This document shows, in pieces, positions 4,892-61,283 of a DNA stretch of 64,000 nucleotides. The notes under the pieces are model-generated. The model worked only from the letters and a program-made list of their open reading frames with translations, made no database searches and was not told where the DNA came from. Position 1 is the first letter of the stretch. Every line of letters begins with the position of its first letter. This stretch comes from Candidatus Dojkabacteria bacterium. Lineage in GTDB: Bacteria; Patescibacteriota; Dojkabacteria; J137. The DNA lies in assembly GCA_025993875.1 (NCBI GenBank), contig JAMQHH010000005.1, forward strand, positions 8,183 to 72,182. The letters are read 5' to 3'. The translations under genes were made by a program, and so were the position numbers.

Positions 4892-4916
4892 TTAAATATT
4901 TTTTACTTTTACATTT

Positions 4917-9157: not shown

Positions 9158-9180
9158 AGTTTTTTATATAATTCAGCTAT

Positions 9181-10212: not shown

Positions 10213-10233
10213 TTGTAGAAATACAAAATTGTG

Positions 10234-10674: not shown

Positions 10675-10677
10675 AGA

Positions 10678-11157: not shown

Positions 11158-11164
11158 AAATTTT

Positions 11165-11590: not shown

Positions 11591-11867
11591 TTATGAAGCA
11601 AAGTGGAAAGAATACAACGCAAGACAAAGTGAAATTACTGACCAATTATCTAAGCTAACCAAATCGGATGAATCTTATTATATTACGATGGGTTATGTCT
11701 TTCAGCTTGCTCATAGTGCTTATGATTTATTTTTGTGTTCTGAAATGGAAGAAAGAAGGCAAATTATCAATTTAGTATTTCAGAACGTCAAGATGAATGG
11801 TGAAAAACTAGAATACACAATGGATGAGGCCTTTGAATTACTACGAAATTTAGACGATTGTACTATA
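11556..11867 (+). pseudogene. Serine recombinase C-terminal remnant fused to the tRNA-His 3' end (att junction)
   Basis: Translation DFYEAKWKEYNARQSEITDQLSKLTKSDESYYITMGYVFQLAHSAYDLFLCSEMEERRQIINLVFQNVKMNGEKLEYTMDEAFELL aligns with residues ~400-500 of the 1746..3323 recombinase (QYNKFRENWTKQKEEYEGKLARISKADKEYYITASYLLELASRSYELFLGSEPEQKRQIITLTLQNL...). There is no N-terminal catalytic domain, and the frame runs directly into the tRNA. Confidence 0.7.
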
Positions 11868-11944
11868 TGGGGTGGTTGGCGGGGCTCGAACCCGCGACAA
11901 CCGCTTCCACAGAGCGGCGCTCTACCAACTGAGCTACAACCACC
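11868..11944 (-). tRNA. tRNA-His (anticodon GTG), with G-1 and genomically encoded CCA
   Basis: Hand-folded cloverleaf on the minus strand: G-1, acceptor GTGGTTG/CAACCAC, D-stem GCTC/GAGC, anticodon stem CCGCT/AGCGG with loop CTGTGGA, T-arm GCGGG-TTCGAGC-CCCGC, discriminator C, then CCA. Confidence 0.85.
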
Positions 11945-12042
11945 AACACAATATCAACGTCTTGTAACAATTCTACCTAATCATTAAATTTATGTTAAAT
12001 TATAGCATTAACAGCAGCTCGTAGGCATGTTAGTATACAAAA

Positions 12043-12615
12043 GTGGACAATATTCTAAAATTAAAATATATCTACGCATCTTCTTTTATATTTTGGCTGG
12101 CATCAAATCTTGTAAGCCCGTTTTTGGTTTTATTTGCTCTTACATATATAAATGGAATCAGCGCGCTCGAAATCGGCATTGCGTCTATGTGCTTTTTTCT
12201 ATCGTTCGGTGTAAGTGTAATTTTATTTGCTACAATTGCCGATAAAATTAAAGGTGTTAAAGACGATTTCCTTATTATTTTTTGCGGTTTTATATTTAGG
12301 GGTGTTATTTTTATCTTTATCAGTGTAGTAAATAGTATATGGGGGTTTTATGTTATTCACATACTTTTAGGTCTGAGTCGAGGTCTTACGGATTCTTCGC
12401 AGGAAAAAATTATTTCTAAAATATCATCTGAGGATTTTTTGGGAAGAACATTTGGCTTAAAAATAGGACTTGTAAATATAGCTGCAGCTGCCGGCGCAGC
12501 TTTGGGTGGTATCTTTATTGATCAATATGGCTTTAATTATGTGTTTATTGCTGTCGGCATTTTAACAATAATTGCCGGATTTCTTTTTTACTATAATCGA
12601 AAGGTTATAATATAA
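12043..12615 (+). CDS. Six-TM MFS-like membrane protein (possibly a truncated half of an MFS transporter)
   Basis: Six hydrophobic helices. The TM2-TM3 loop ADKIKGVKDD resembles the MFS D-R-x-G-R-[KR] loop. At 190 aa it is about half the length of a typical 12-TM MFS transporter. Confidence 0.45.
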   Translation: MDNILKLKYIYASSFIFWLASNLVSPFLVLFALTYINGISALEIGIASMCFFLSFGVSVILFATIADKIKGVKDDFLIIFCGFIFRGVIFIFISVVNSIWGFYVIHILLGLSRGLTDSSQEKIISKISSEDFLGRTFGLKIGLVNIAAAAGAALGGIFIDQYGFNYVFIAVGILTIIAGFLFYYNRKVII

Positions 12616-12623
12616 ATAATTTT

Positions 12624-13049
12624 TTAATTGCGGCTTTTTCCGCTAAACTTAATAATTGATACCAGCAGCCCAAAACTCGAAATTATTGGGGGAACGATTA
12701 TTAAAAATCTAAAGATTTTATCCCATGTTTCTTTATTACCAAAAACCTCGGTGCTAAAGGGAAACACAACCCAAAATATGTACGCCAACACAATAAAAAA
12801 TATGTTTTCTATTACGTCGGTAAATAACTTATAGACTTCGGTTTTTATAAAATATCTAAGAAAATTAAGTAAAATGCCAATAACCAGTACAGCATTGTAA
12901 AAAGGCTTTATACTGTCAAAATTATCCGATAAAAACGTAATTTTATAGTACAAAAGATTAAAAAGTATTAAAAATCCCGTAAAGAAGAATAATCCTATGG
13001 TATTTTCGATTAAATCTCCTACTCTATTCTTTTTCATACTAAAAACCAT
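12624..13049 (-). CDS. Small polytopic membrane protein, unknown function
   Basis: 141 aa with four hydrophobic segments. Overlaps the start of the pseudouridine synthase gene by ~10 nt. Confidence 0.4.
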   Translation of the reverse strand: MVFSMKKNRVGDLIENTIGLFFFTGFLILFNLLYYKITFLSDNFDSIKPFYNAVLVIGILLNFLRYFIKTEVYKLFTDVIENIFFIVLAYIFWVVFPFSTEVFGNKETWDKIFRFLIIVPPIISSFGLLVSIIKFSGKSRN

Positions 13050-29400: not shown

Positions 29401-32400
29401 AGCCGATGTAAAAAACAGCTGTTTTGTTTACGAACATAAATCTGAAGACGAAATTTACAAAAAATCTTCTCAGGACCCTTATGCCGAATGGCCCAAATCT
29501 GCATCTATTAACTTAAACACAGCACTCTATAACCTAGTTTCGTATATTGATATTTACTTAAAGCCAAAAGGGTTGGATTTAAAAATTCCCGAAAGTGAAA
29601 ACTTCGGGTGGCAGGGGTTAATAAGACAAAGTGTGCACGATGAAGGTAAAAAAAACAATTCCAAATATATTCCTGCCGAGGTTTTTAATATGCCTTATTA
29701 TTATAACGGGGAATCTAACGAGCAGTGTGTTAACGATAAATCGAAGTTTTTCGATAACTCTATGCCTGTTGCATCTTCCAGACAGTCGGATGTATATTTC
29801 CCGCTGGCGGGTTGGATACAGATTTTAACTGAATTTGCCACAGGATATGTTGCCAATACTACTCTGCCCGATGTAAAAATTGCTCCACGACAGGAATTAG
29901 TGGCTAGTGTACAAAATGGAAATAGCAGCTTAAATCTTTCCAGCGTGCTTGGAATTGATACCAAAGCAAACGAACAATATATAGAATCTAACTTTGTTCA
30001 GTCAGGTTATGCTTCTAGAGCTCTCTCGTTCCCGCTTTATTCGTGTAACGAAATTGATGAATGCAAAAAAGATTCCAATTCGCCTCTTTGTCCCGATCCG
30101 CTAAAAGGTATAGAGATACCCAAGGATAAAGAATTTACCTGCATTAAGTTAAGGGATGGACAGAGTGAAAATTTTATAAAAAATTATCTTTGTCAAAAGG
30201 GATTTGTTTTTGAAGATGTATGCGGAAAAGATCCTTTACTTTATTGCAGTGTTCCTCAAACCGGAAATGACAGCTCAAAATCCGCCGATACGCCGGTTAA
30301 GATTGCAAGTGGGGGTTATTACGCTGTTGCCAATACTTCCGACTCCCTATTTTTTGCTACTGAAAGTTATAAAATTAAGTCAGAAAATATAACCGAATTT
30401 TCAAAAAGGCATCAGTTAGACTTTGCGATAAACGGAAACTTTTATACAGGAACCGGTTCTCCTTTAGGAATGGTCGGCCAATCACCAAACATTATATTTG
30501 ATAACATTAATGATGCTAGCAGAGCGGGCGCAGAGTTTGCATTAGTGTGGCACGATGGTAAATTAAAAACCGGAAAATCGGAAAACGATAAGTTTATAAT
30601 TTTTTACACAGATAAAATTGCAATACTGGATACTCGAAGTAAATCAATTATGGGAGAAAATGCTGATGTATTTTCACAAAAACAATTTGATGCTTTTAGA
30701 CCTCACATTAAATCTGCAGTAAGCGGGATTGCTCTTTTAGGCAGCCAGAGTAAATTACGTTATTCAGAGTCCGATTATACTACAATTAGACAAGAGGTAA
30801 GAGCGGCTACAATTATAGGGATTAAAGATAAAGGACAAAATGTAGTTTTATCGGTTTTAGATGCGGCAAATTTTTTTGGTATAGAAAATTATGTAAAAGA
30901 AAACAATTTAGAATATGCAATTATTTTGGATGCAGGAGGTTCTTCTCAAATTTATTCTAAAGCCGGTTTTCCTGATTCTGTTGATATTTATAACAATGGA
31001 ACAGTATATTCTCCGGAGGCAGAGCCAAGAGGTGTAAGTGTGTATTTCGGATTTAAAATAAGTAACAGTAGCGTTTTGGTGGGAACGAGTGATTATTGCA
31101 GTTGCATAAATAATATTAATTCGAAAGATTTTGTTCTTAACTATCCAGTTAAAAACGTTATATATGGAGGAGAAACACAAAAAATTTCTCAGGAAAATCT
31201 TGCAGCAGATTATGGGAGAGAAAGAACTATTGACGGATGGAGCGATTATCACACCGGACTAGATTGGCTTGCTACCGCAGGTGAACCTGTTTTGGCAGCC
31301 GGAGCTGGAAGTGTTTATTTTGTAGGCACAGATACCGATTCCAGTGGAAACGTTTCGGGGTACGGAAATTATGTAAAAATAAAACATTCCAACGGAATGG
31401 TAACCTTATATGCGCATTTAAGTGAATTTTTGGTTGCAGCGGGAGATAATGTTAAAGCAGGAGATGCTATAGGAAAAGTAGGCAATACCGGCAGAAGCAC
31501 CGGATCTCATATTCATTTTGAACTACGTAAAAACGATACTTGCGGGTGGGATGGAAGTTTAATTGCAGATAATTTTGGAAGCTGCAGCATAGATCCCAAA
31601 CAGTATTTTTCGGAGCTTTTTGATGAATCTGCTGCAATTCAGTGTAAAAACACTAAGTCCAACAACTATAGTACCATAATGGATTTAGCTCAAAAAGTTG
31701 AAAGTATTACAAAGGTCCCTGCCGAATTTTTGCTTTCGATTCTTACGCTCGAGAGTAGAACCGATATGGAGTTAACGCTTGGAGATTTTATAAAAAATAA
31801 TAACCCTGTTTATTCGGGAGATCCATACGATAGAAAATCTCAAGAAGGGGAAAATCCGTACAAAGCGGCCGGCCCGTATCAGTTTGTTGGGTGCTACTGG
31901 ATACCATACGGTATTCCGAGAAATATTGATCCCGATAAACTAAGGGAATTGTATCCCGGTTGTGCAGATTCTAATTACAGTACGGCAGGCCGAAATTATG
32001 ATGAAGTTTTAAACTGTGTAAAGGAGATAGGAATGGAGGCGGAATACGGTGAAGTTTTGGATAGAGAGTTTGTGGGACATTCGATGTGTGCAATGGCATC
32101 TAAATCTAAAGGATTTTTTGCTAATTTAACATCTTCTCTTTTTGATACTTTTTCGGTCGAAGATAGATCATCTTTTGCTGAGACCAATCCTATTTGGAAT
32201 GCTGCCAGATATCATTATTGCGGGAATGTTTCGCTCGGGAATGCCGAAGGACAATGTTCTTACGGATATTGGTATTCCGATGCAGCATGGGGAAGAGCAA
32301 ATGTTTTTAATAAGTTTATGGATAAGTTAAAATCCGGAGATATAAGTTTTGACCAGGTGTTTTATTATTCGGATACTTTGGAAATTGAGTGTGTAAATAG

Positions 32401-32431
32401 ATCTTATAACCAAGTAGATGACTGCCGTTAA
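26402..32431 (+). CDS. Giant secreted multi-domain cell-wall hydrolase (GH5-like + SGNH/GDSL + phosphodiester-glycosidase-like + M23 peptidase + lytic-transglycosylase-like)
   Basis: Signal peptide, then GPNEPG and TEFGSF (GH5-type acid/nucleophile blocks). FGDSLAG and LGTNDC (SGNH blocks I and III). AINGNFYTG and AIILDAGGSSQ (NAGPA/phosphodiester-glycosidase hallmark). HTGLDW...GYGNYVKIKHSNGMVTLYAHLS...SHIHFE (M23 LytM motifs). FLLSILTLESRTD (SLT-like ES motif); 2009 aa. Confidence 0.8.
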   Translation: MKQFSKIPLSTRVLFGAICTLSLLTVVRDLSSRNFEAFGNLQSVTAQESSSETITKAKTPSFPETYNGEYKIIDSFGRALVINPGNKADPIKTVAEVDGKIWGMELNSKSGVNMGTYSGDLRPIDFISGKGTVEDLGMSFVVISTTNDGNVDSLVKAINEAVDNGKMPVIRLCIGPCNFIIKGSAQTVGESMAKFYLQVAQALEGSDAQFVASLGPNEPGTGNEMADFLLTSDVNYGYSILPEAANIAARLLQGYRGDTMYLAPGIFNITNTKNDDFLAYSKVLDPSLFDYLLGNTYVFSDLSAHAFYTDKIGSRTSSVKEYVESNNLGFIVTEFGSFVTNDSPSTGDGGELSVSALDLVKSSYSELCRDQSIDGINFFRPFTEEEYGTTIPIPKQGIPSDQVLEITSVCSEIPQKATKSNRWLNANFDSCVALEDNENSVLGVSDTAKQYCSVIRGKTSWLSFGDSLAGNGESMAGVTGAEVLSFEGQGALDFLEGHPFYTQSYVDSLNAKLNEEKIAAVRIILGTNDCRSGIDQLDNFKKAITFITQTIKQKAAPILVTIMGNPSCTGGAELWNAKIREVASSEGAVLIDTTSYYSNSDLKDDRHLKNYDKLNSETTAVLSSISSSCKISINTGNLPTGDDSSNLETGVSESIYVNYDGTYGLGRDTKLKSCQVIESKSDSKTSALVVPSGNGFGITLVTYMDVSLPVLSVASANPANSSAVISSTPLTNYISAQIGTPKQGENFYDSLNQFAEGLDLGEMGSYPVPWLGSLNSSASSLIYSLKDYNFAGNVPINYNSNALYQNSISEIQNDIENKLAVASTYETSGVYYKDGKIPDERAVCFAKRSNISEIVACFDNKEFTSIRQSRYSDIGSAKYILKEEEVSSCPGIQIASTNRKNLLPGPKVEVKRVSEQFSGSEICWNYGVRKINSDISENWSFKYDKVFLEEDKAKSNLKCSVDPNAVVYRYNRLNVLVPVKCTNLIPLCDFSSGRCSFPGEADVKNSCFVYEHKSEDEIYKKSSQDPYAEWPKSASINLNTALYNLVSYIDIYLKPKGLDLKIPESENFGWQGLIRQSVHDEGKKNNSKYIPAEVFNMPYYYNGESNEQCVNDKSKFFDNSMPVASSRQSDVYFPLAGWIQILTEFATGYVANTTLPDVKIAPRQELVASVQNGNSSLNLSSVLGIDTKANEQYIESNFVQSGYASRALSFPLYSCNEIDECKKDSNSPLCPDPLKGIEIPKDKEFTCIKLRDGQSENFIKNYLCQKGFVFEDVCGKDPLLYCSVPQTGNDSSKSADTPVKIASGGYYAVANTSDSLFFATESYKIKSENITEFSKRHQLDFAINGNFYTGTGSPLGMVGQSPNIIFDNINDASRAGAEFALVWHDGKLKTGKSENDKFIIFYTDKIAILDTRSKSIMGENADVFSQKQFDAFRPHIKSAVSGIALLGSQSKLRYSESDYTTIRQEVRAATIIGIKDKGQNVVLSVLDAANFFGIENYVKENNLEYAIILDAGGSSQIYSKAGFPDSVDIYNNGTVYSPEAEPRGVSVYFGFKISNSSVLVGTSDYCSCINNINSKDFVLNYPVKNVIYGGETQKISQENLAADYGRERTIDGWSDYHTGLDWLATAGEPVLAAGAGSVYFVGTDTDSSGNVSGYGNYVKIKHSNGMVTLYAHLSEFLVAAGDNVKAGDAIGKVGNTGRSTGSHIHFELRKNDTCGWDGSLIADNFGSCSIDPKQYFSELFDESAAIQCKNTKSNNYSTIMDLAQKVESITKVPAEFLLSILTLESRTDMELTLGDFIKNNNPVYSGDPYDRKSQEGENPYKAAGPYQFVGCYWIPYGIPRNIDPDKLRELYPGCADSNYSTAGRNYDEVLNCVKEIGMEAEYGEVLDREFVGHSMCAMASKSKGFFANLTSSLFDTFSVEDRSSFAETNPIWNAARYHYCGNVSLGNAEGQCSYGYWYSDAAWGRANVFNKFMDKLKSGDISFDQVFYYSDTLEIECVNRSYNQVDDCR

Positions 32432-43388: not shown

Positions 43389-46300
43389 CTAACTGCATCC
43401 TGTTGTTGTACCACAATCCATGCAAACTGCACAGCTTCCACTTTTTTTAACGTTCATACTGCCACAGCTTGAGCAAATATCCCCTGTATATCCCATCGAT
43501 TTTGCTTTAGAGATTTTATCGGAAAGAGTTTCCTCTTCCATCGAAAAATCATTTTGTGTAATAACTTCTTCCAGCTTAAGTTGGCTTGGCTCAACGTTGA
43601 TATTTTGAGACGCTGTTTCTAAATTTTGATTACTTTTTGGGGTATAATAATTTCCTTTAATCTCTGTGTAGCCTTTACCATTTATGTAAGGGATTAGTAA
43701 ACGAGATTTTGTACCTTCTCTATAGGATCTCTCTACTAGTTCCTCGTTATGATATTGTTTTGCTGTTTCTATATCTAAAAATTTTAGAGCAAGCCACCTG
43801 GATATGTAATCAATTATAGATTTAACCATAGGAATTTCCCTGTTTGATGTTAACCCGCTCGGCTCGAATTTTAAATTTACGAATTTTTTAATTAAAGCTT
43901 CTAACGGTACACCATATTGCATGTTAAGTGAAAGAGAGATGGCAAAAGCATTCATTATCCCCGATAAAAAGCTTCCCGCATTACTCATTGTTATAAATAT
44001 TTCGCCGGGGTTTCCATCTTCGTATAACCCTACTGTTAAAAATCCCTCATGACCTGCCACTGCAAATTTATGGGTAATACTATGTCTTTCATCCCCTAAT
44101 TTTCTTCTTTTAGGCCTGTTTTCAAGTTCTTTATTGATAACCTCCTGAAGTTTAATTGTATCGATAGTAATTTGCTCTCCTTCTTCCTCCGAAAAATTAA
44201 ATAGTTTAGAATAGCTGCTATCCGAACCTCCTGTGGTTAAAGGTTGAGACAACTTTGACCCGTCTCTGTAAAGAGCATTAGCCTTTAACATAAGTTTCCA
44301 TCCATCCAAATAAGTTTCGGAGATCTCTTTTAAGCTTGCTTCTTCGGGGAGATTTACAGTCTTACTTATTGCACCCGATAAAAAAGCCTGAGCTGCCGAC
44401 ATTATTTTTAAATGACCCGTTGTACCAATATATCGCTGACCTTTTTTCCCGCACTTGTTTGCACAGTCAAAAACAGCGTAGTGCTCTATTTTTAAAAAAG
44501 GTGCACCTTCTATTGTCATGGTACCGCACACATACTCTTCCGCTTTTTCTATTTGAGACTCGGTAAAACCAATAGCTTTTAATAAATCGAATTTTGGGTT
44601 TGCCAAGTTTTCAGCGGAAATTTTTAATGTGTTTTTTATAAAATCTTCTCCTAAAATCCACTTACTAAAAACACTACGCAAATCAAAAGCTGTTTGCAGC
44701 CTTCCTTCAATTAAAAATAAAATTTCATCAGTAAACCCTTTATCTTTAAGGGTTAAATTATTTATAAATGGTGCACCATTTAATGTAGCATGCCCAACAA
44801 TATATTTTTCTATTCCGTCAATTTCGGCTGCAGTGTATCCAAATTGTTTTAATGCTGGTTTGACAGATTGATTAACCATCTTAAAGTATCCTCCCCCAAC
44901 AAGTTTTTTAAATTTAACAAGAGCAAAATCGGGTTCTACCCCTGTTGTATCAAAATCCATTAATAAACCAATCGTTCCGGTTGGAGCAATAACAGTTGTT
45001 TGTGCATTTCTGTATCCATACTTCTCACCAAGTCCTAAGGCAAAATCCCAGGATTCCGCTGCAATTTTTGCAAGTTCAAAATCGGGAATATTCGAAAGGT
45101 TAATTCCCATAGGTTTGATTGTAAGTCCTTCGTATTCGTTTCCCGATACATTGTATGCAGCTCGGCGGTGGTTTCTTATTACCTTAAGCATTGGATCTTT
45201 ATTATTCGAATACTTTGCAAAAGGTCCTTTAATTTTGGCCATTTCGGCGGAAGTTGCATAAGATTCCCCCCCCATAATGGCGGTAATTGCACCGGTTACA
45301 GCATAGGCTTTGTCGCTTTCGTAAGCAATCCCCTGCTGCATTAAAAGTGCCCCCAAATTTCCATACCCCAGGCCCAGTGTTCTAAAAAGATACGTTCTTT
45401 CGGCCACAGTTTTAGTAGGCAAATGTGCCATTAAAACAGAAATTTCTAAAACTATTGTCCACAACCTTGTTGCGTGCACAAATTTTTCTGTATCAAATTT
45501 TCCTGTGGCTGAGTTAAAAAATTTTAGTAAATTTAATGAAGCAAGGTTACAAGCTGTATCGTCTAAAAACATGTACTCGGAGCATGGATTACTGGCATTA
45601 ATTCGCCCATCGTTAGGGCATGTGTGCCACTCGTTTATTGTAGTATCGTATTGTATTCCGGGATCGGCCGACTCCCACGCCGATCTAACCACTTTATCCC
45701 ATAAATCACTTGCCTGTAACTTTTTAATAACTTTCCCGTTTGTCCTGGCGGTAAGTACCCACTCTTTATTCTCTTCCAGAGATTTAAAAAATTCATTTGT
45801 TACTCTAATAGAGTTATTTGAATTTTGACCACTTACTGTGCTGTATGCCTCGGATCTAAAATCTGTATCGTATTTTTCGAAGGTAAATTCATCTTCTTTT
45901 ATGCCGTTTTCTACAAGCATTAAAATTCTTTTTATATAATTTAGCGGGATGTGGGCATTTTTAGCATTTTTAATTGCTTTTTTTAGTTCGGGGTTTGATT
46001 CCGGATCAATACCATTTTCTATTGCCAGTTTAAGTATGGACTTTAAGTGTTCATAATTGGTATTTGATCCTGTTACAATTGCGGCAACTTTTCTCTCCTC
46101 TTTTGCTTTCCACTCAATAAAACTCTCGATTTCGGGGTGATCTATATCTAATGTAACCATTTTGGCTGCTCTTCTTGTTGTTCCTCCCGATTTAATTGCA
46201 CCGGCACCTGTATCGAAAATTTTTAGAAAGCTCATCAATCCAGAAGACTTGCCACCACCCGATAATGTTTCGCCTTCTCCCCTAAGAGCGGAAAAATTTG

Positions 46301-47015
46301 TTCCTGTTCCCGAACCATATTTAAAAATTCTTGCTTCTGTAGTTAATGTATCAAAAATTCCTCCTTCGTTTACTAAATCGTCTTTTATGGAAAGAATAAA
46401 GCATGCGTGTGCTTGCGTTCGGGTATATGCATCCGGCGAAAGCTTTAGCTCGCCGGTTTCGGGGTCGGCGTACCAATGTCCCTGAGGAGTACCGGTAATT
46501 CCATAAGCCCATTGCAACCCGGTATTAAACCACTGAGGACTATTAGGAGCTGCGATCTGAGTTATTAGCATGTAGGCAATTTCGTCCTCGAATGCATCGG
46601 CATCTTGTACCGAATCAAAATATCCGTATTTTTCTCCCCACCACCTCCATGCACCTGCAAGTCTGTTTACTGTTTGTTTTACAGATGTTTCCCCTCCATA
46701 TACCTGTTGCCCTTTTTCATCTTTTATTGGGTTACCTTCTGCGTCTTTTAAGGGAATTCCGGTTCTCCTAAAATATTTTTGAGCCAAAATATCTATTGCC
46801 ACCTGGCTCCATAATGCAGGAACTTCAATATCTTTCATTTCGAAAACAACAGAACCATCGGGGTTCGAAATTTTGGAAGTTGTTTTTACAAAAGTAATAC
46901 CATCAAATCTATCCTTCCCTTCTTTTGTAAAAACTCTTTTTATTTTTAATCCTGCTGTACCAATATTATTTTTTTCTCTCTCTTCTATCTTTTCTTTGCT
47001 TATTAAAGTCTGCAT
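43389..47015 (-). CDS. nrdJ: Adenosylcobalamin-dependent (class II) ribonucleotide reductase NrdJ, long form with C-terminal Cys-rich zinc ribbon
   Basis: Active-site block SNPCSEYMFLDDTACNLASLNL (the NPCGE...CNLGSINL pattern), a thiyl-radical Cys region, and the C-terminal CSSCGSMNVKKSGSCAVCMDCGTTTGC; 1208 aa. Confidence 0.85.
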   Translation of the reverse strand: MQTLISKEKIEEREKNNIGTAGLKIKRVFTKEGKDRFDGITFVKTTSKISNPDGSVVFEMKDIEVPALWSQVAIDILAQKYFRRTGIPLKDAEGNPIKDEKGQQVYGGETSVKQTVNRLAGAWRWWGEKYGYFDSVQDADAFEDEIAYMLITQIAAPNSPQWFNTGLQWAYGITGTPQGHWYADPETGELKLSPDAYTRTQAHACFILSIKDDLVNEGGIFDTLTTEARIFKYGSGTGTNFSALRGEGETLSGGGKSSGLMSFLKIFDTGAGAIKSGGTTRRAAKMVTLDIDHPEIESFIEWKAKEERKVAAIVTGSNTNYEHLKSILKLAIENGIDPESNPELKKAIKNAKNAHIPLNYIKRILMLVENGIKEDEFTFEKYDTDFRSEAYSTVSGQNSNNSIRVTNEFFKSLEENKEWVLTARTNGKVIKKLQASDLWDKVVRSAWESADPGIQYDTTINEWHTCPNDGRINASNPCSEYMFLDDTACNLASLNLLKFFNSATGKFDTEKFVHATRLWTIVLEISVLMAHLPTKTVAERTYLFRTLGLGYGNLGALLMQQGIAYESDKAYAVTGAITAIMGGESYATSAEMAKIKGPFAKYSNNKDPMLKVIRNHRRAAYNVSGNEYEGLTIKPMGINLSNIPDFELAKIAAESWDFALGLGEKYGYRNAQTTVIAPTGTIGLLMDFDTTGVEPDFALVKFKKLVGGGYFKMVNQSVKPALKQFGYTAAEIDGIEKYIVGHATLNGAPFINNLTLKDKGFTDEILFLIEGRLQTAFDLRSVFSKWILGEDFIKNTLKISAENLANPKFDLLKAIGFTESQIEKAEEYVCGTMTIEGAPFLKIEHYAVFDCANKCGKKGQRYIGTTGHLKIMSAAQAFLSGAISKTVNLPEEASLKEISETYLDGWKLMLKANALYRDGSKLSQPLTTGGSDSSYSKLFNFSEEEGEQITIDTIKLQEVINKELENRPKRRKLGDERHSITHKFAVAGHEGFLTVGLYEDGNPGEIFITMSNAGSFLSGIMNAFAISLSLNMQYGVPLEALIKKFVNLKFEPSGLTSNREIPMVKSIIDYISRWLALKFLDIETAKQYHNEELVERSYREGTKSRLLIPYINGKGYTEIKGNYYTPKSNQNLETASQNINVEPSQLKLEEVITQNDFSMEEETLSDKISKAKSMGYTGDICSSCGSMNVKKSGSCAVCMDCGTTTGCS

Positions 47016-50841: not shown

Positions 50842-53700
50842 TTAAGACTCTCTGTCTCGATCGGCACTCGCTTCAAGATATGTTTTTGCTACAGCTTTTG
50901 CTCTTTCGTAATTTGCGGTATCGTGATTAGTATTATTTCCTGAACTTTTTGTGTAGATCAATCCGCAAATTAATACAGTTTTCCCTCTGCTTGTGTTTTG
51001 GATAAAAACAATTCTAAATTGATGTCCCCCATTACATAAAGTGTAAACACCTTTATCTGTATCATTCTTTGGAACCAAATCACGAGGTTGATCATGCGAT
51101 TCAAAGTACGCTCGTAATGCTTTTATTATACTAGGATAATACCTGGTAAAGTTGTCAAGGGAGCTTTCTTGAAATGCTTGTAAAGCATTTACTATGCTCT
51201 GCCGATCTAAATCAAACCCGGTATGTACCTTTTTGGGAAGGGAAAAAATATCTTTCGTTATATTTATTGAACTACTTGAATTTTCTTCTTCACCCTCATT
51301 TTTGGGAATTAAATTTGTAAGTTGCCCATACTTATCTATTGCAAGCCAGATAAATAATTTTACAATATCAGTTAAACCGGCAAATTCTTGTGTTTCGGTA
51401 TAATTTCTCAGTTGGGTTGGGGTATATGTGTTTAGAAATGTTTGTAATACGCTCCAATCAAAGGAGCCATCTACCTGCTCAGCAACTGGAGTGGAATTTA
51501 CTTCTAATCGTTTAGATTTAAGATATGAACTAATGCTACTACCATTAAAGATTTGTTGCATGGTTTCCCATACACTTTTGCCGTTAACACTTTGAGCAAA
51601 AAAGGCTTGAACATATTCCTGTGTAATTTTGTTATCTAGCACAAATTCTACCTCGTCCGGCATCTTCTCAAGCAACTCATTATCTGGTTCTGTAGGCTGT
51701 TCACTATCACTACTAGGCTCGGCTTCGAAATCTTCGGGTGATATTTCACTAGGTTCTTGAGGTATGTTATTTAAACTTGCAAGTTCTTCAAGAAATTCCG
51801 GAGTAATTTTTTGTTTATTCTCCCCAAGTGCTTGAGCAATTTGAGGATACTTGTTTCTAAATTCACTAATTAAACTGTTTAAGGAATCTTCTGTATTTTT
51901 ATATTCTAAAACATCCCCCAAAAAAAGCCACCATGCAATAGCCTGATCTTCGGTAAGGCGATCGGTATTTGTAAAAACATTTTCCGCCGATTCGCTAAGC
52001 CTTTCTATGGCATACGGGTTTTCTTGAAAAAAATCAAAGCCAGTAGCAGATTCATCTATTATTGTATCTTCAAAATATGAAGTAAGATGCTCAATATATT
52101 TTGCATAATCAAAAAGATATCTATTTTCTCTAATAAGTTCGGGTAGGAATAGATATCGGTTGCTTTCACCACGTTTGTTTGCATTTTTCTTAGCAAGAAA
52201 GCTCCCCAAAGTACTTGTAGAAGGATGCATGGATTTTCCTTCTGCTGTTCTTGAATAAAATAAAGAAGATAAGCTTGTATATGTAGAAAATGGAGCATTT
52301 GCCAAAATACTGGGGTTTTTTACCCCGGCATCTTGTAAACTTTTAACTACTTCTTCTAAAAATCTTTTAAGTAAGTTCGCATTATCATTACTTTTATCTG
52401 CTTGAGTTGCATCTATATATGTTTCTTCTCGGAGATCTCTTTTACTTTTTTGAGAAGGGTTTAGAGAGCTTCTATAAACGTCTGTATTTTCTTGTTTTTT
52501 GGTAAAACCACTTGCTAAATCAGTTAACGCTTTTTTTAACCGCTCCTTTTTAGTATAATCTAAGTTGCTTAACTCCTCCTTAACAGAATTTTGGGCTCTC
52601 CTTTTTCTAAATTCGCTGTTTAATACATTAGATACACCTGTATCCCAAGGAATTTGCATAATTGTTAGAATTTTTCTTAAAAGCCCTTTTATTTGATTAG
52701 ATAGATTTTGGGGATTATATGTACGGTCGGTTCTTATTTTTTCAATTATATCAGTAAAGCTAGATAAGTTTTTTAACATTCTGTTGACTGCAGTGATAGT
52801 ATTGCTTTCATTTAAAGGTGTATCGGATGTAACAATTCGAAACTGTATTAAGGCAGCTCTTATCTTTTTAAATTTTTCACCTTTATTTTGTTCACCAATT
52901 GCATTTTGGAAATCAATAAGAAAGCCCGAGTGCTGTAAAAAGTACACATAAACTTCTGGAGTAATTATTCCATTGCTTTTTGCAGCTTCGGATTCAACTG
53001 TTTGTTGTGATTGTTCTACTGTTGTTGTAATAAATGCCGAAGGTCTAATAGACGGGAAAAACCCCAGCCTTTCAAGACCAATAAGCCCATCGGAAAACTC
53101 TTTCCAAGAATTTTTTAAACTATCAAACTGATTAAAATTGGTATAGATCTTATTTGCATATTCTGGAGTAATCTCTTGGCTTTCAACTTTATCAATAATT
53201 ATGTCCCAAAATTCCCTTGGGGTAATCTCTGTTTGCATAGCTGTAATAATCCGTTTTTCTATTAACAGATTAAAAAATTCTGAGTATTTTTCGTTTAAAG
53301 CGATTGCAAAATATCCAATTAACTCTCTTTCAGTTAAGGGCTGTTCTAATTTTGTAGCAAAATCTTCTGCCATTTTTCTTTGCACAGATTCCGAAAAAAT
53401 GCCTACTCCTATTTCTACAAGTTGGGCTAAAACATCTTGCAAAAGCTCCTTTAACTTTTTAACTGTGTTTAACTCATTCTGACTCTCGGTAATGGACTGT
53501 TCTAACTCCTTTACCTTTTGTGCTAAATTAGCAATTTCTCTAAGGCGTGTAAAAACCTCTCCAACACTTGGCAGGTTCGCTTTTTTAGTGCTCAGCTCGG
53601 CCTTAACACTTCCCAGTTGAGCATTTAGTGAATCGATTACAGAAGAAATCGAGTCTTGTTTATCACTTTGCTCCAAAGCAGCCCTAAATACAAATGCCAT
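50842..53700 (-). CDS. Large coiled-coil protein with C-terminal RelE/ParE-like domain
   Basis: The N-terminal ~150 aa are heptad-rich. The C-terminal ~90 aa (SIIKALRAYFESHDQPRDLVPKNDTDKGVYTLCNGGHQFRIVFIQNTSRGKTVLICGLIYTKSS) follow the RelE/ParE pattern '...NP..G..L.g....YRiRvGdYRiiY.v.d....V.ilrighRk'; 952 aa. Confidence 0.5.
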   Translation of the reverse strand: MAFVFRAALEQSDKQDSISSVIDSLNAQLGSVKAELSTKKANLPSVGEVFTRLREIANLAQKVKELEQSITESQNELNTVKKLKELLQDVLAQLVEIGVGIFSESVQRKMAEDFATKLEQPLTERELIGYFAIALNEKYSEFFNLLIEKRIITAMQTEITPREFWDIIIDKVESQEITPEYANKIYTNFNQFDSLKNSWKEFSDGLIGLERLGFFPSIRPSAFITTTVEQSQQTVESEAAKSNGIITPEVYVYFLQHSGFLIDFQNAIGEQNKGEKFKKIRAALIQFRIVTSDTPLNESNTITAVNRMLKNLSSFTDIIEKIRTDRTYNPQNLSNQIKGLLRKILTIMQIPWDTGVSNVLNSEFRKRRAQNSVKEELSNLDYTKKERLKKALTDLASGFTKKQENTDVYRSSLNPSQKSKRDLREETYIDATQADKSNDNANLLKRFLEEVVKSLQDAGVKNPSILANAPFSTYTSLSSLFYSRTAEGKSMHPSTSTLGSFLAKKNANKRGESNRYLFLPELIRENRYLFDYAKYIEHLTSYFEDTIIDESATGFDFFQENPYAIERLSESAENVFTNTDRLTEDQAIAWWLFLGDVLEYKNTEDSLNSLISEFRNKYPQIAQALGENKQKITPEFLEELASLNNIPQEPSEISPEDFEAEPSSDSEQPTEPDNELLEKMPDEVEFVLDNKITQEYVQAFFAQSVNGKSVWETMQQIFNGSSISSYLKSKRLEVNSTPVAEQVDGSFDWSVLQTFLNTYTPTQLRNYTETQEFAGLTDIVKLFIWLAIDKYGQLTNLIPKNEGEEENSSSSINITKDIFSLPKKVHTGFDLDRQSIVNALQAFQESSLDNFTRYYPSIIKALRAYFESHDQPRDLVPKNDTDKGVYTLCNGGHQFRIVFIQNTSRGKTVLICGLIYTKSSGNNTNHDTANYERAKAVAKTYLEASADRDRES

Positions 53701-56324: not shown

Positions 56325-57281
56325 CTACTTTGTACTTTCTATTCTAACCCAGGTTTTTACAAAGTCTTTTTTTAATATTTTTCTTTCCCAGTATATTTTT
56401 AACCATAGCCATAATCTTATTGGGTATAATAAGATTGACCAGCTAAGCTGTGTTAAGTTTTTGGCATAGCTTAATGGAAACCAAAAATATTCCAGCTCCC
56501 TCCAAAACGATCTGGTTTTGGTTTCGGGTTTTACAACTTTGTATTCCCATAATTGCACGTAGCCGCCGGTAGATCTCTTTTTTTGCTTAAAATAGTCAGA
56601 TAATCCCGTTGGGTATTTTACATAAGCAATCGCTTTAGATGCATACCCTATTTTTAGTCCTTTGTTAAACATGTCGTAGGAGATATATGCATCGTCCACT
56701 AAACAATCCTCAGGGAAAATAATGTTGTTTCTTTTCATTGCATAAATGTAGCCCGAAACAGGAAAAAACGCCCTCTTTTTTACAAATTTTAAACTTTTAC
56801 CAACAGGGTGCTTTGTTAGGTCAACTGTTCGCTTATGGTGTGCGGCATCGGCAAGCAAATTGCCAAAATATCCCATCATTGTGTTTTTGCTATCGGCAGA
56901 TTTGGGTCTTCCCGAAACAAGATCGTATCCCTTATTTAATTTAAAACATAGCTTTTTTACAGCATCTGTTCCAAACCAAACATCCCCGTCTGTAAAAACA
57001 AAAAAATCTCCTCTGGCTTCTTTTATTAACATGTTTAATGCGAATGGTTTGCCCTTGCCCGGGTCTTGAATATATCGAAACTTATTGGAAATTCCGAGAG
57101 ATTCGACTGCTTTAAAAGCTTCTTCGTAAGTCTCTTTATCCGGAGCTGCGAGTAGAATTTCGAATGAATCATCAATACCAGAATATTTTTGATTTCCTAT
57201 ACATTTTATACATTTGGCAATCGTTTCTTTTTCTTTCCATGCAGTTATGAGCACAGAAATTTTGACCTTCTCTTTGTCCAT
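56325..57281 (-). CDS. Family 2 glycosyltransferase
   Basis: VLITAWKEKETIAKCIKCIGNQ with an early acidic pair, and FTDGDVWF (DxD-type motif). C-terminal amphipathic/TM segment; 318 aa. Confidence 0.7.
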   Translation of the reverse strand: MDKEKVKISVLITAWKEKETIAKCIKCIGNQKYSGIDDSFEILLAAPDKETYEEAFKAVESLGISNKFRYIQDPGKGKPFALNMLIKEARGDFFVFTDGDVWFGTDAVKKLCFKLNKGYDLVSGRPKSADSKNTMMGYFGNLLADAAHHKRTVDLTKHPVGKSLKFVKKRAFFPVSGYIYAMKRNNIIFPEDCLVDDAYISYDMFNKGLKIGYASKAIAYVKYPTGLSDYFKQKKRSTGGYVQLWEYKVVKPETKTRSFWRELEYFWFPLSYAKNLTQLSWSILLYPIRLWLWLKIYWERKILKKDFVKTWVRIESTK

Positions 57282-57326: not shown

Positions 57327-58505
57327 TTACAAGGTTGGGGCAGCCTCTAACACATCTTTGATTTTTTTATTTCTTTTATTGTTAACAAATTTAATAAAAA
57401 AGATTAGTACAATAGCAGCAAAGGTAATTAAAGATAAGACTAAAATAATTATTAAAACCGTATTTGAACTGTTATCGGTATTTTCGGCCGAAACCGGGAT
57501 AGAAATCGGCTCCGTTATAATAATTTCGCCTGTTTGTGTATTTCCTGCTTTATCAAAAGCTGTAATGTAAACTTTATACACACTTTTATCTACCTCAAGC
57601 CCGGTTGTTACTGTTACCGGATCCTTATCATCTAATTTTGCAGTAAAGTGTGAAACACCAGAAAGAGTATCGTTTGTTGCAAAATACAAAATGATTTTTT
57701 CTTCGTTTTCCTTTTCTATCTTTGCTATACCAAAAGGATCCGGCGAGGTTTTATCGTAGTTTATCGCGTAATGGGTTACCGGTCCAAAACCTACACTGTT
57801 TTTTGCTTTTATATGAAAATAACTTCGTCCTTCGGTTAGCGATTCGTTTGTAAATGTAACTTCACTCCCGTCAATCTGATCGTCCGGATTGGTATCGCCG
57901 GACATATCCAATGCATAACTAAAGCCCTCAACTCCATCCTGCTTGTTCCAGTTTAAAGTTACGCCAGAAAGATTATACCAGCTATCCTGTGACGGATGAG
58001 TGGTAGAAGAAAGATTTACGGCATTAGGCGCGGGAGGCGGCGGTGGTGGAGGATCTATCACGGTGTAAGTTACAGTATTGCCTCCTCCGTCTACCGGTGT
58101 ACCTGTTCCGTCTGCCAAAGCGATTGTCCCATAACTATTTATGGTTCCGGTACTTGGATAGTTTAAAGCTCTAAATGTTAGGTTTAAAACATTTTTTCCT
58201 CCAACTGCGCTACTTCCTAAAAGTGCTCCGCTAAACACTACTGTATTTCCCGATAAATACGGGCCGGAAATCCCCGTCCAGCCACCAGCAGGGGATACTC
58301 CAACAAACACAAGGTTGGAAAAATTTACATTAACTGTAACAGCATTGTAAGAATCCGATCCGTTTACATCTACACTAACGTTAAATTGGGTCCCGGAGTA
58401 AATTGTGCCGCCTCCTGTAGTTGAAAATCCTGCACTTGCTGCCTGTACTTTTGGGCTAAAAGCAATTGAGGATATTAGTATTAACAGTATAATAATTTTT
58501 TTCAT
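57327..58505 (-). CDS. Cell-surface protein with N-terminal cohesin-like beta-sandwich module, poly-Pro linker, FN3/Ig-like modules and C-terminal TM anchor
   Basis: Signal peptide. GTQFNVSVDVNGSDSYNAVTVNVNFSNLVFVGVSPAGGW resembles the cohesin strand pattern. PPPPPPPAPNAV linker. C-terminal VLIIILVLSLITFAAIVLIFFI anchor. Confidence 0.5.
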   Translation of the reverse strand: MKKIIILLILISSIAFSPKVQAASAGFSTTGGGTIYSGTQFNVSVDVNGSDSYNAVTVNVNFSNLVFVGVSPAGGWTGISGPYLSGNTVVFSGALLGSSAVGGKNVLNLTFRALNYPSTGTINSYGTIALADGTGTPVDGGGNTVTYTVIDPPPPPPPAPNAVNLSSTTHPSQDSWYNLSGVTLNWNKQDGVEGFSYALDMSGDTNPDDQIDGSEVTFTNESLTEGRSYFHIKAKNSVGFGPVTHYAINYDKTSPDPFGIAKIEKENEEKIILYFATNDTLSGVSHFTAKLDDKDPVTVTTGLEVDKSVYKVYITAFDKAGNTQTGEIIITEPISIPVSAENTDNSSNTVLIIILVLSLITFAAIVLIFFIKFVNNKRNKKIKDVLEAAPTL

Positions 58506-58514
58506 ATTTTTATT

Positions 58515-61283
58515 TTACACATTTTGAAGCCAGTTTTGTGCAACTATACTTAAATCTGAAATATTTACTTTGTTATCGCCGTTGGCATCGGCATTTGTTA
58601 CATTTTGATTCCAAAAAGCTGCTAAAATGCTGAGATCTTGCAAATTTACATAACCGTCGTTATTAAAGTCGCCTTTTAATTTTCTTTGTGCTGCAACGGT
58701 TGTAACTTTAAAAGTATTGATGTTTATTGTGTTGCTTTGGTTAGAATGGTCGTCTGTTAAAAAAAGAGTGCAGCCCGAATATGTGCCGGGCGAAAGTGTA
58801 TTTAAGGAAATTGTGTTGTTACCTAAAACAGCAGTTGAAGAAGAAGATGAGCACACTCCGCCGAAAGTTATTGTTCCTGCTTTATTGGAATTAAAGGTAA
58901 AGGGAGGCGTTGTGTCCACAGTAAGAGATGGAACAGGTGTTATCAAACTGATAACTGGCGGTTCAATGAATGGCTGAAAATAAACCATAATCTTGCCCCT
59001 ATTAGTATCGTAAACAAACAAGTTATCGTTAGAATCGAAAGTTAGTGCAAAAGGCCAACCGTAAAAGTCGTTTAGAGAGCCATTGTGAATAGCAAACTGA
59101 CTGTCGGAAGGGTTACTCGAATTATACGAAGTAGGATTATTAAAATATCGTAAGAATCTTTGCTGACTGTATGGGTTAAAGCCAATTACCATTCTGTTGG
59201 TGCTGTCGAATGCCGGTTCGAATGATGCAAAGCTATATAGATCCCAGGGGAATTCTTTGGTAGCCGAAAGATCAAAAAGAACAGTAGAAGGGCTGGCAGG
59301 AAGAATTTCCGCACTAAACATTAAAATTCGGTAATTGCCGCTTAGCTCAAAAAAATGATCGGAAATATATAAATTGTTATATTTATCCAGTTTAACAGCC
59401 CCGGGATTACAAAGAGTATCTATAGGGGCAGTAGTAGGAAAAGTTAAACCTCTATTACATTCGTTACCTATAATATCTTCTTGCCCAATAACTATATCTA
59501 CAAGAGGTGAAGTTAGCGGATTTCTAATTCTTATGGCTCTGTTGTTAAAACCATCTGTAAGCCAAAGATGTGTACTATCCGAATTAACAGCCATTCCATT
59601 AAAATTAGGAAAGGCAATGGTGCCTCCGCCTGCCAGATTTAATGTTCCGGCTATTGTCTGTATTGGTGTCGAAGATAGAGATAGCGGTCCCTGGAAAACT
59701 TCGATCTCACCGTCGGAATTTTTTACAAATATTCTATCGCTTTCATCGGCAGCAAGAATGTTAAAACCGGGCGTTATATCTATCGCCGACGATCCTCCTA
59801 CGTACCCATCTGGAGCTGCACCGCTGGAAAGATTAATTGCATTATTCCAAAAAAGCATTCGGTTATCAGTAACAACCAGTTGTCCGTTACTTAAAACCAC
59901 CATTCCTGCCCAACCACCCTGCTCCAGCCTATCGGCCGAAGTGGCATTGTAACCCCAAGGTGTAGGGAATAAATCTCTTTCAATTACAAAGGTGTTAGTG
60001 TCAATATCAAAATCATGCTTTATTATTCCGTTCCCATAAACATAAGAACTTGTTAGCACACTACCATTTGTATCAATACCAATTGACCCTCCTCCAGGAT
60101 TCCAGTAAGAAAATTCTTGGACAATTGCGTTACCATTTAAGTCTCTTTTGTTAAAAAAATTAGTGGAAAACGAAAGTTCGGATGTAAAAAATCCGTTTCC
60201 GTCAGGAGTCATTTGAATTGCCAAAAGGTTATCGTGAAAATCAGCGCCATCCATTACCACTGTCCCTGACATCCCGTTAGTAAAAGGAGGAGTAAATTTT
60301 AAAATTCTATTGTTTCCCTGATCGGCAACGTAAATATTTCCCATGCTATCTACTCCAATAGAAGAAGGAGAGGCAAATTGGTTTAAACTATCTCCGTAAG
60401 AATAATCTCCTCCTGTTGTAAAATTTGGTTGCCCCAATACAAGATCGGCATTTTGAGAAATATTTCCTCCACTCTTGGAAAACCTTAAAACTCTATTATT
60501 CCCTCCGTCTGCTACCCACAAGTTTCCGGTTAAATCAATTGTAACTCCACTACCACTACCTCCAATAGATGAAAAGCAAAGCGAACTATTATCTGGAGAT
60601 GGAGCCGCCTGCAGATACCCTCCGGTTTTATTGCAAGAATTTCCTGTAAAATCGGTTTGCCCCCATACCTGATCAGCTACTGTATCTGTAGTAAATGGAG
60701 AGATGAATTTTAAAACTCTATGGTTTAGACTATCTGCAACATACAAATTGCCGTCAGAGTCTGTTGCCATACTGGTAAAAGATTTATCTTCCAGTGTTGT
60801 GTGTGTCCATTCCCCAATTCCACATAAAGATGTAGCGCTTGCAGGTTTTCGATTTGGATAATCGGAAAAACTTGCATCCTGGTTACACGCACCATAATCA
60901 GTACCCGATGGCTGCCCGATAATAATATCTGCTATGCAGCTTTCGGTAATTTCTGTTGCATAGCAAGTAGATAAATCGACCCCTACAATTCTACTGTTTC
61001 CTGCATCCCATACATATGCTCTGCCTGGGCTTACACTTCTATCTACAATTACGCCTCCGGGAGTATGCAGTTTATATGGAACAACTTTTCTGGGTGAATT
61101 TTCGCCGAAATCACGTTTCCCAAAAACTTTATCGGCCCATAAATCGAATTTTTCACCTCTTACTGCAGCAGCAGATAATTTATTTCGATATGGTAGAATA
61201 AGAAGACCGGTTATAGCTATCAAAACAATAACAAAAACTGTTTTTAAGTATTTTTTTAATTTAGTAGTATTATTATTTTCCAT
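58515..61283 (-). CDS. NHL-repeat beta-propeller protein with C-terminal type I dockerin
   Basis: Repeated NHL blades (LYVADSLNHRVLKF; LWVADGGNNRVLRF; IYVADQGNNRILKF; LWLTDGFNNRAIRI). The C-terminal duplicated Ca-binding loops DFNNDGYVNLQD...DANGDNKVNISD are a canonical dockerin pair. N-terminal signal/TM; 922 aa. Confidence 0.75.
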   Translation of the reverse strand: MENNNTTKLKKYLKTVFVIVLIAITGLLILPYRNKLSAAAVRGEKFDLWADKVFGKRDFGENSPRKVVPYKLHTPGGVIVDRSVSPGRAYVWDAGNSRIVGVDLSTCYATEITESCIADIIIGQPSGTDYGACNQDASFSDYPNRKPASATSLCGIGEWTHTTLEDKSFTSMATDSDGNLYVADSLNHRVLKFISPFTTDTVADQVWGQTDFTGNSCNKTGGYLQAAPSPDNSSLCFSSIGGSGSGVTIDLTGNLWVADGGNNRVLRFSKSGGNISQNADLVLGQPNFTTGGDYSYGDSLNQFASPSSIGVDSMGNIYVADQGNNRILKFTPPFTNGMSGTVVMDGADFHDNLLAIQMTPDGNGFFTSELSFSTNFFNKRDLNGNAIVQEFSYWNPGGGSIGIDTNGSVLTSSYVYGNGIIKHDFDIDTNTFVIERDLFPTPWGYNATSADRLEQGGWAGMVVLSNGQLVVTDNRMLFWNNAINLSSGAAPDGYVGGSSAIDITPGFNILAADESDRIFVKNSDGEIEVFQGPLSLSSTPIQTIAGTLNLAGGGTIAFPNFNGMAVNSDSTHLWLTDGFNNRAIRIRNPLTSPLVDIVIGQEDIIGNECNRGLTFPTTAPIDTLCNPGAVKLDKYNNLYISDHFFELSGNYRILMFSAEILPASPSTVLFDLSATKEFPWDLYSFASFEPAFDSTNRMVIGFNPYSQQRFLRYFNNPTSYNSSNPSDSQFAIHNGSLNDFYGWPFALTFDSNDNLFVYDTNRGKIMVYFQPFIEPPVISLITPVPSLTVDTTPPFTFNSNKAGTITFGGVCSSSSSTAVLGNNTISLNTLSPGTYSGCTLFLTDDHSNQSNTININTFKVTTVAAQRKLKGDFNNDGYVNLQDLSILAAFWNQNVTNADANGDNKVNISDLSIVAQNWLQNV

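Follow-up and report, generated by a model that had tools for sequence, protein, structure and literature searches.

Do two adjacent genes of a Candidatus Dojkabacteria bacterium, one encoding a tandem beta-propeller protein and the other a membrane-anchored protein, specify the two halves of a cohesin-dockerin pair at the cell surface, and if they do, how would such a pair work in a bacterium of this lineage? No protein plug-and-socket on bacterial surfaces is understood better than the cohesin-dockerin interaction, and nearly all experiments on it concern cellulosomes; bacteria in the candidate phyla radiation (CPR), for their part, are very small and for the most part have not been grown in culture, while the cultivated ones are epibionts whose surface proteins are believed to control attachment to the host. 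The two genes lie on a 64,000-nucleotide stretch of contig JAMQHH010000005.1, the whole of which was analysed here and is referred to as the window. An earlier account made from the DNA letters (hereafter the sequence-only reading) had proposed that they form a non-cellulolytic modular display pair. The core of that proposal is supported by our analysis, namely by the dockerin, by the homology and fold of the cohesin, and by a gene pairing that is conserved while the cargo varies, and we consider that the locus probably encodes a minimal, one-to-one cohesin-dockerin surface-tethering pair in a Patescibacteria (CPR) bacterium.

The gene of the propeller protein (922 amino acids, hereafter the cargo) and that of the membrane protein (392 amino acids, hereafter the anchor) are both open reading frames (ORFs) on the minus strand, arranged head-to-tail with the cargo first, and they share one reading frame. 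The features that bear on the pairing, with their evidence in parentheses (AF2, AlphaFold2; HMM, hidden Markov model; pLDDT, predicted local distance difference test score; Ig, immunoglobulin), are:

58515-61283, minus strand: cargo gene, its product made up of an export helix, NHL beta-propellers in tandem, an Ig-like domain and a dockerin (ORF, Pfam, AF2)
58518-58697, minus strand: cargo residues 863-922, C-terminal dockerin (PF00404, AF2, alignment of orthologous dockerins)
58506-58514, minus strand: 9-nt spacer aataaaaat between the cargo TAA stop and the anchor ATG (sequence)
57327-58505, minus strand: anchor gene (ORF; 42 homologues; AF2 pLDDT 90.6)
58050-58439, minus strand: anchor residues 23-152, cohesin module (homologues, domain-only HMM, fold)

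No terminator-like site was found between the two genes in a promoter/terminator scan, the counts of which were at or below shuffle expectation, and the genes are presumably co-transcribed as an apparent operon. In metagenomes from many sequencing runs, independent gene callers placed the pair in identical order on at least 24 contigs, and it therefore represents a recurring natural population rather than an assembly oddity. Searches of the 64-kb window with regular expressions and custom HMMs recovered the cargo dockerin as its sole dockerin and the anchor cohesin as its sole cohesin.

The cargo had been described as an NHL propeller protein ending in a canonical dockerin, and both parts of this description hold, with the NHL repeats scoring 88.1 bits (see below) and residues 870-916 matching Dockerin_1 (PF00404) at 34.6 bits, above its gathering threshold of 22.9 (E 2.2e-8). 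Both loops quoted at the time are present, DFNNDGYVNLQD (D872-D883) and DANGDNKVNISD (D899-D910), each with D, N, D, N and D at the Ca2+-ligand positions 1, 3, 5, 9 and 12, and the loop-helix arrangement of a dockerin is found in the AF2 model, where a short helix (863-869) precedes two helices, one per loop (881-889 and 908-916). The helices after the loops carry a near-repeated motif, DLSI[LV]A..W (DLSILA..W in one half and DLSIVA..W in the other), and the two halves of the module are nearly identical. A profile built from seven orthologous dockerins has its best matches among solved structures in enzyme-borne dockerins, namely 2y3n_B (E 7.5e-10), 4fl4_A and CelS, and it also matches the dockerin of Clostridium perfringens mu-toxin, while EF-hand proteins reach E about 0.005 at best and most of them 0.08 or worse. 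In sequence, the cargo dockerin is closest to enzyme-borne type I dockerins (CelS, Cel9, CelD), and the linker between its repeats is 6-9 residues shorter than in the aligned solved dockerins. Against a large protein database the same profile returned 25 short fragments of 45-99 amino acids that carry no information on cargo. Type I dockerins can bind cohesin in two orientations. Because its halves are nearly identical, the cargo dockerin could likewise bind in either of two orientations, and its duplicated, near-symmetric build, which it shares with cellulosomal dockerins, is compatible with such a dual binding mode.

For the anchor, a cohesin-like N-terminal module had been suggested, and homologues, a domain-only HMM and the predicted structure all agree with this. 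Pfam Cohesin (PF00963) is matched by 21 of the 38 aligned anchor homologues at E<=0.01 (best E 1.8e-10), and orthologs from two other loci pass its cut-off of 24.1 bits (29.0 bits at L008 and 26.7 at L011), which the window's own anchor does not reach. Thus, of the two Pfam searches proposed by the sequence-only reading, the one for the dockerin succeeded above its cut-off, while the one for the cohesin left the anchor itself unmatched and succeeded with its orthologs. The NCBIfam scan gave no cohesin match for the anchor, and a single-sequence search of the Protein Data Bank (PDB) gave a weak match to a fibronectin type III (FN3) domain only. Since homology could have been carried by the Ig domains downstream, residues 23-152 were scored alone with an HMM that represents just the N-terminal domain in 21 distant homologues (P0020-P0040), 15 of which have a precomputed PF00963 match. 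They scored 37.3 bits (E 2.9e-10), and the best of 2000 shuffles scored 10.0. The AF2 model of the anchor has a pLDDT of 90.6 overall and of 92-97 across the cohesin domain. Its best PDB match in Foldseek is 2w1n (E 3e-10), in which a cohesin is followed by FN3 in identical domain order, and not a non-cohesin Ig fold, the outcome that had been named as counting against the proposal. Foldseek further aligned the model with the cohesin 2xdh (template modelling score 0.73, root-mean-square deviation 3.4 A over 131 columns; profile E 0.018) and listed the scaffoldin 4fl4. Judged by homology and by its predicted fold, which agrees with the nine-stranded beta-sandwich (jelly-roll) of cohesins, we regard the module as a cohesin that is too divergent for the Pfam model.

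The residues most conserved across the anchor family are YNAV at 53-56, F91 and G93, and D132-G133-x-G135-T136, and they map to predicted strands 3 and 6 and to the 8-9 loop, with strand numbers inferred from the secondary-structure string. In solved cohesin complexes, dockerins bind the face formed by strands 8-3-6-5, and the modelled positions of the conserved residues are consistent with this canonical dockerin-binding face.

If the two modules bind each other, the genes that carry them should stay together even where the rest of the cargo changes. We compared ten loci of the anchor family, running the custom dockerin and cohesin HMMs on all ORFs of all loci. Six of the ten make up a close subfamily with anchors 43-49% identical to that of the window (the window, L001, L002/3, L006, L007 from a Dojkabacteria metagenome-assembled genome, and L008), and four hold more distant members (L004/5, L012, L013 and L014); a scan of a genome collection with 17 close anchor homologues found three loci. 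The relatives named among the homologues belong to the Kerfeld-, Lloyd-, Shapiro-, Levy-, Dojka- and Saccharibacteria. At all six loci of the close subfamily, the gene directly 5' of the anchor gene ends in the identical dockerin subtype, with one small ORF intervening at L008, and both the dockerin motif DLSILA..W and the cohesin motifs are conserved across this subfamily. The cargo in front of the dockerin nevertheless varies: the window and L001 have an NHL double propeller, L002/3, L007 and L008 have a Peptidase_S8 subtilase that also contains Big_13, and L006 has a truncated protein with no family assigned. At the four distant loci a Big-domain dockerin protein is encoded 1-5 genes upstream on the same strand. 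A dockerin-tailed gene thus lies upstream of the cohesin-anchor gene at 10 of 10 family loci with varying cargo, which matches the prediction for a socket and its plug, and since these genomes have about a thousand genes, it is very unlikely that chance would have kept the dockerin there throughout.

Some loci carry more than one module of a kind. Four consecutive, partly overlapping cohesin-bearing genes (5121-11032 of L004, also in L005), whose products all open with the same cohesin-type domain, come directly after a dockerin-tailed gene (3851-5158), and L014 has two cohesin-bearing genes. In L011 (ERZ27247850 k141_66108, 2-13040), five dockerin-tailed genes, with Big_6, fn3, NHL, Big_7 and Peptidase_M64 as cargo, are clustered with four cohesin genes, and two proteins of 609 amino acids (9258-11084) and 227 amino acids (11083-11763) carry a cohesin together with a dockerin and are thus built like the adaptor scaffoldins of cellulosomes. 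No glycoside hydrolase, polysaccharide lyase or carbohydrate esterase family was found in the neighbouring dockerin proteins at any locus examined. As observations on the surroundings of these loci, the small ORF of L008 (9359-9970, 203 amino acids), between the S8-dockerin and cohesin-anchor genes, has the N-terminal methylation motif of type IV pilins (PF07963, E 1.1e-5). In L012 (6455-15494) and L013 (6479-15524) the cohesin-anchor gene has an HSP20 gene immediately upstream of it, and the dockerin gene is preceded by one for an FGE-sulfatase-like protein; about 0.4-1 kb downstream of the anchor gene, past a small ORF on the opposite strand, a giant ORF (>4405 and >6245 amino acids, respectively) begins and runs off the locus.

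Beyond its cohesin, the anchor had been described as a signal-peptide protein with a PPPPPPPAP linker, Ig/FN3-like modules and a C-terminal transmembrane segment, and the sequence and the AF2 model agree with each of these elements:

58440-58505, minus strand: anchor residues 1-22, Sec signal peptide MKKIIILLILISSIAFSPKVQA|A with predicted cleavage at VQA|A (sequence; position conserved among homologues)
58020-58049, minus strand: anchor residues 153-162, proline-rich linker (PPPPPPPAP at 152-160)
57750-58019, minus strand: anchor residues 163-252, FN3-like domain with the motif YFHIKAKN (weak fn3 match, AF2)
57513-57749, minus strand: anchor residues 253-331, second Ig-like domain with the motif AFDKAGN (profile matches)
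57387-57458, minus strand: anchor residues 350-373, transmembrane helix VLIIILVLSLITFAAIVLIFFIKF (sequence; AF2 helix 347-388)
57330-57386, minus strand: anchor residues 374-392, K/R-rich tail VNNKRNKKIKDVLEAAPTL, predicted to be cytoplasmic (sequence)

A proline-rich segment occupies the equivalent place in most anchor homologues. The FN3-like domain is modelled as a beta-sandwich with a pLDDT of >95 and matches Pfam fn3 weakly (E 0.015) and the FN3 structure 2crz (E 0.0034), with fn3 also detected in five homologues. The second Ig-like domain matches an OmpL47-type NCBIfam model (E 2e-5, below its cut-off) and the Ig-like domain of chitinase 6bt9 (profile E 1.2e-4), and ten anchor homologues have Big_13. 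Searches of Pfam and NCBIfam found no S-layer homology (SLH) or sortase-signal family in the anchor, the C-terminus of which consists of the transmembrane helix and the K/R-rich tail, and a hydrophobic C-terminal segment is kept in all full-length anchor homologues. From the positive-inside rule, the protein would be oriented with its N-terminus outside and its C-terminus inside.

The remainder of the cargo, for which the AF2 model built on 53 homologues has a pLDDT of 89.8 and a predicted template modelling score of 0.82, is divided as follows:

61164-61283, minus strand: cargo residues 1-40, N-terminal hydrophobic helix TVFVIVLIAITGLLILP (15-31), then SAAA|V (sequence and AF2)
58959-61163, minus strand: cargo residues 41-775, tandem NHL-type beta-propellers, which form the protein's strongly conserved core (Pfam NHL, homologues, AF2)
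58698-58958, minus strand: cargo residues 776-862, Ig-like beta-sandwich that separates the dockerin from the propellers (AF2 strands 778-861)

The N-terminal helix (6-32 in the AF2 model, with a low-confidence stretch at 31-38) is probably a Sec signal peptide that would be cleaved after export, and the family-invariant residues of the cargo start at R42. The propeller region belongs to the NHL-repeat propellers, with four stretches matching NHL (PF01436) at 88.1 bits against a cut-off of 20 (E 1.8e-25), a tandem propeller in the AF2 model, and a profile that matches the NHL structures Pizza, TRIM71 and PknD. The Ig-like spacer is modelled with a pLDDT of about 75-83, and no Pfam family matched it.

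The propeller core is far more widespread than the pair. Among 2595 cargo homologues, many are 40-53% identical across ~80% of the length and, where a source is named, come from multiple phyla, including the Bacteroidota, Myxococcota (Hyalangium), Anaerolineae, Woesearchaeota and CPR groups, and an alignment of 53 of the homologues has 69 invariant columns, among them paired cysteines and NHL motif residues. The double-propeller family (homologues P0049-P0162) is uncharacterised and has probably spread horizontally. Its C-terminal appendage varies: a dockerin is present in 12 of the 120 top homologues, other homologues end in the carbohydrate-binding modules (CBMs) CBM3, CBM60, CBM4_9 or CBM96 or in Glyco_hydro_cc, and one (P0118) combines NHL, cohesin and dockerin within a single chain. 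Because homologues in other phyla are fused to cellulose- and xylan-binding modules, their architectures suggest that the propeller works on or at polysaccharides. The sequence-only reading took the propeller to be ligand-binding and not a glycoside hydrolase. However, since orthologous propeller cores are fused to CBMs and to a glycosyl-hydrolase core, a glycan-directed role of the cargo is quite possible. No catalytic family was assigned to the propeller in the Pfam, NCBIfam, structure-profile and Foldseek searches.

Taking the known behaviour of Sec export, the positive-inside rule and solved cohesin-dockerin complexes as guides, we propose the following mechanism. Both proteins would be exported via Sec, and the anchor would be retained in the cytoplasmic membrane by its C-terminal transmembrane helix, with the basic tail inside, while its two Ig-like domains and the proline-rich linker would serve as a stalk that holds the N-terminal cohesin off the membrane. 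The cargo, once released, would plug its Ca2+-loaded C-terminal dockerin into this cohesin, and the tandem NHL propellers would thereby be held non-covalently at the cell surface. The anchor may be regarded as a generic socket, in that orthologous loci pair it with a subtilisin-like protease or with Ig-repeat proteins bearing the same dockerin. As to the propeller cargo itself, the target that it binds or acts on is probably a polymer outside the cell, and most likely a glycan, either from the environment or belonging to a host cell.

Several observations weigh against this proposal. Pfam Cohesin does not match the anchor protein even at E<=1, and the matches of the anchor-family profile to solved cohesins (ScaB, 2xdh and NagJ) are each weak (E 0.01-0.4) and of mixed type (I/II/III). 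No cohesin gene was found within 6 kb of the NHL-dockerin homologues at L009 and L010, so that members of the cargo family do not always have a cohesin gene next to them. Further, cohesins or dockerins elsewhere in the genome, beyond the 64-kb window, might be the true partners. The N-terminal helix of the cargo is possibly an uncleaved signal anchor, in which case the cargo would already be membrane-bound and a simple tether less necessary. As to the role of the propeller, Foldseek with the cargo model returned generic tandem propellers and NHL 'Pizza' proteins only. In L009 we also observed a 58-amino-acid dockerin-only ORF (5821-5994; 101.6 bits with the custom dockerin HMM) just upstream of the NHL-dockerin gene, with a second NHL-dockerin gene 0.8 kb downstream; this ORF may be the remnant of a third cargo gene.

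Some of these points would also be expected if the two proteins worked separately at the surface and had no affinity for each other, with the dockerin acting as a Ca2+-dependent adhesin or as a glycan- or wall-binding tail, and the cohesin-like protein as an Ig-fold adhesin or a wall-spanning protein with another ligand. The failure of the Pfam Cohesin HMM on the anchor and the NHL-dockerin homologues without a nearby cohesin fit such an arrangement, and non-cellulosomal dockerins have been speculated to be adhesins or binders of host glycans in Omnitrophota and Saccharibacteria (PMC10066038; PMC10633639). However, the presence of an upstream dockerin gene at every family locus despite replacement of the cargo would be difficult to account for if the two had no direct functional link, the putative dockerin face (DLSILA..W) is conserved along with the cohesin motifs across the subfamily, and the two-module proteins (L011, P0118) fit the usual logic of cohesins and dockerins. 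We therefore consider independent function unlikely.

Alternatively, the two modules might bind in trans, such that the cargo docks on the cohesins of kin cells, or bridges the epibiont to its host via the propeller, for attachment or aggregation and not for enzyme display. CPR bacteria of known lifestyle are epibionts (PMC10633639), the libraries searched revealed no catalytic signature in the propeller, and a symmetric dockerin would permit flexible geometry. Our data do not separate binding in cis from binding in trans. However, a subtilisin-like protease on the same dockerin in orthologous loci fits enzyme display better, and the CBM fusions of propeller orthologues suggest a polymer substrate and not a protein receptor, which leaves attachment in trans improbable in our view. 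An incidental adjacency, with the dockerin-like loops being a generic, purely stabilising EF-hand-type Ca2+ site, is highly implausible: weak Pfam EF-hand matches do overlap the same residues (E 0.026-0.23), but Dockerin_1 scores far better and passes its cut-off, the ortholog profile matches solved dockerins at E down to 7.5e-10 and EF-hand proteins at about 0.005 at best, and the gene pairing is conserved.

As a tethering pair, the cargo and anchor can be set beside known systems. The single-cohesin anchoring proteins of Clostridium thermocellum (OlpA/OlpC, SdbA) capture dockerin-bearing proteins at the cell surface, and from general knowledge of these proteins the anchor resembles them in placing one cohesin on a surface-anchored, non-catalytic protein. 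By contrast, it would be held by a transmembrane helix and a basic tail rather than by SLH repeats. The sequence-only reading had called it an anchoring scaffoldin; by analogy, as a surface-anchored cohesin, this name is appropriate, but with one cohesin and a transmembrane helix, no SLH or sortase module, and no CAZyme (carbohydrate-active enzyme)-assembling system around it, the anchor is not a cellulosomal anchoring scaffoldin in the strict sense. Unlike in the cellulosome, moreover, no CAZyme serves as cargo, its place being taken by an NHL double propeller and, at orthologous loci, by a subtilase, and the modules are paired one-to-one in an apparent operon of a low-GC CPR host, not of a cellulolytic Firmicute.

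Structurally, the closest solved relatives of the anchor model are the non-cellulosomal cohesins of C. perfringens and Archaeoglobus fulgidus. In C. perfringens GH84C (2w1n), the best structural match, a cohesin is directly followed by FN3, and the NagJ cohesin and mu-toxin dockerin of the same organism (2ozn/2jnk), the function of which is likewise unrelated to cellulose, are both among the profile matches. Identity between the anchor model and the C. perfringens structures is about 14-17%. However, the C. perfringens modules join secreted enzymes together, whereas the cohesin carrier here is a non-catalytic membrane anchor. The A. fulgidus cohesin (2xdh) and the wider non-cellulosomal set likewise consist of single-copy modules outside any cellulosome.

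The earlier claim of rarity beyond the cellulolytic Firmicutes was too strong, since non-cellulosomal cohesins and dockerins have been catalogued from each of the three domains of life (Peer et al., 2009, cited in PMC10066038), and a dockerin-domain envelope protein, SEML1_0315, is reported to be essential in the Saccharibacterium Southlakia epibionticum, where a role in host interaction was proposed (PMC10633639). SEML1_0315 resembles the cargo in being a dockerin-bearing protein of a CPR bacterium with a non-cellulolytic function, but unlike for the pair described here, no cohesin partner is mentioned for it (PMC10633639). We found no description in the literature of the anchor family with its cohesin-FN3-Ig-transmembrane layout, of its place after a dockerin-cargo gene, or of the two-module proteins of CPR bacteria, which, as coverage of the literature was incomplete, is weak evidence of novelty. 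What is new here is not the interaction module, which is known, but its use with another anchor and another cargo, its one-to-one arrangement in an apparent operon and the lineage in which it occurs.

The pair is surrounded in the window by housekeeping genes, namely those for SecA, a ClpC-like ATPase, a class II ribonucleotide reductase, UvrC, GreA, a Mur ligase and four tRNAs. A mobile-element or phage origin of the pair was considered and rejected because of these neighbours (SecA, ClpC, ribonucleotide reductase, UvrC, GreA and Mur ligase). The GC content is 0.345 for the window and 0.388 for the cargo gene. On the same strand, 45 nt after the anchor gene, lies a family-2 glycosyltransferase gene (56325-57281, minus strand), followed by a DNA_binding_1 (MGMT-like) gene. 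The glycosyltransferase neighbour is not kept in L001, where EF-P follows instead, and it therefore probably lies outside the cohesin-dockerin module. Elsewhere in the window, a 2009-amino-acid protein (26402-32431, plus strand) combines GDSL-like lipase, NAGPA phosphodiester-glycosidase-like and M23 peptidase domains, and this multi-hydrolase could act on cell envelopes. A 952-amino-acid ORF (50842-53700, minus strand) matches no Pfam family at E<=0.01, and its counterpart in the otherwise syntenic strain variant L016 has 965 amino acids, so that this large protein is variable. The class II ribonucleotide reductase (43389-47015, minus strand) is long (1208 amino acids), with its barrel domain matched in two stretches and a weak TACO1/YebC_N match inside at 302-364, a region that may be an insertion such as an intein.

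For specialists of the cellulosome the principle of this pair would hold no surprise, but for the biology of CPR bacteria it amounts to a testable hypothesis of surface assembly, and a concrete one: a cohesin of ~130 residues and a dockerin of ~60 residues, with one socket for swappable cargo including proteases. On a larger scale, it is possible, although we put this forward only tentatively and with more doubt than conviction, that the CPR/Patescibacteria possess a lineage-wide, non-cellulolytic but cellulosome-like surface assembly kit, in which cohesin-FN3-Ig-transmembrane sockets, adaptors with both cohesin and dockerin, and swappable dockerin cargo (double NHL propellers, subtilases, M64 peptidases and Ig-repeat proteins) arm the surface for host attachment or feeding, and which would supply the missing partner of the dockerin proteins reported to be essential in cultivated Saccharibacteria. 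If the predicted binding is true, the pair would provide a compact, orthogonal cohesin-dockerin couple for protein engineering, and it would account for the way in which these cells equip their envelope with proteins when they have no SLH or sortase machinery, as well as suggest a docking partner for the dockerin envelope proteins of cultivated Saccharibacteria.

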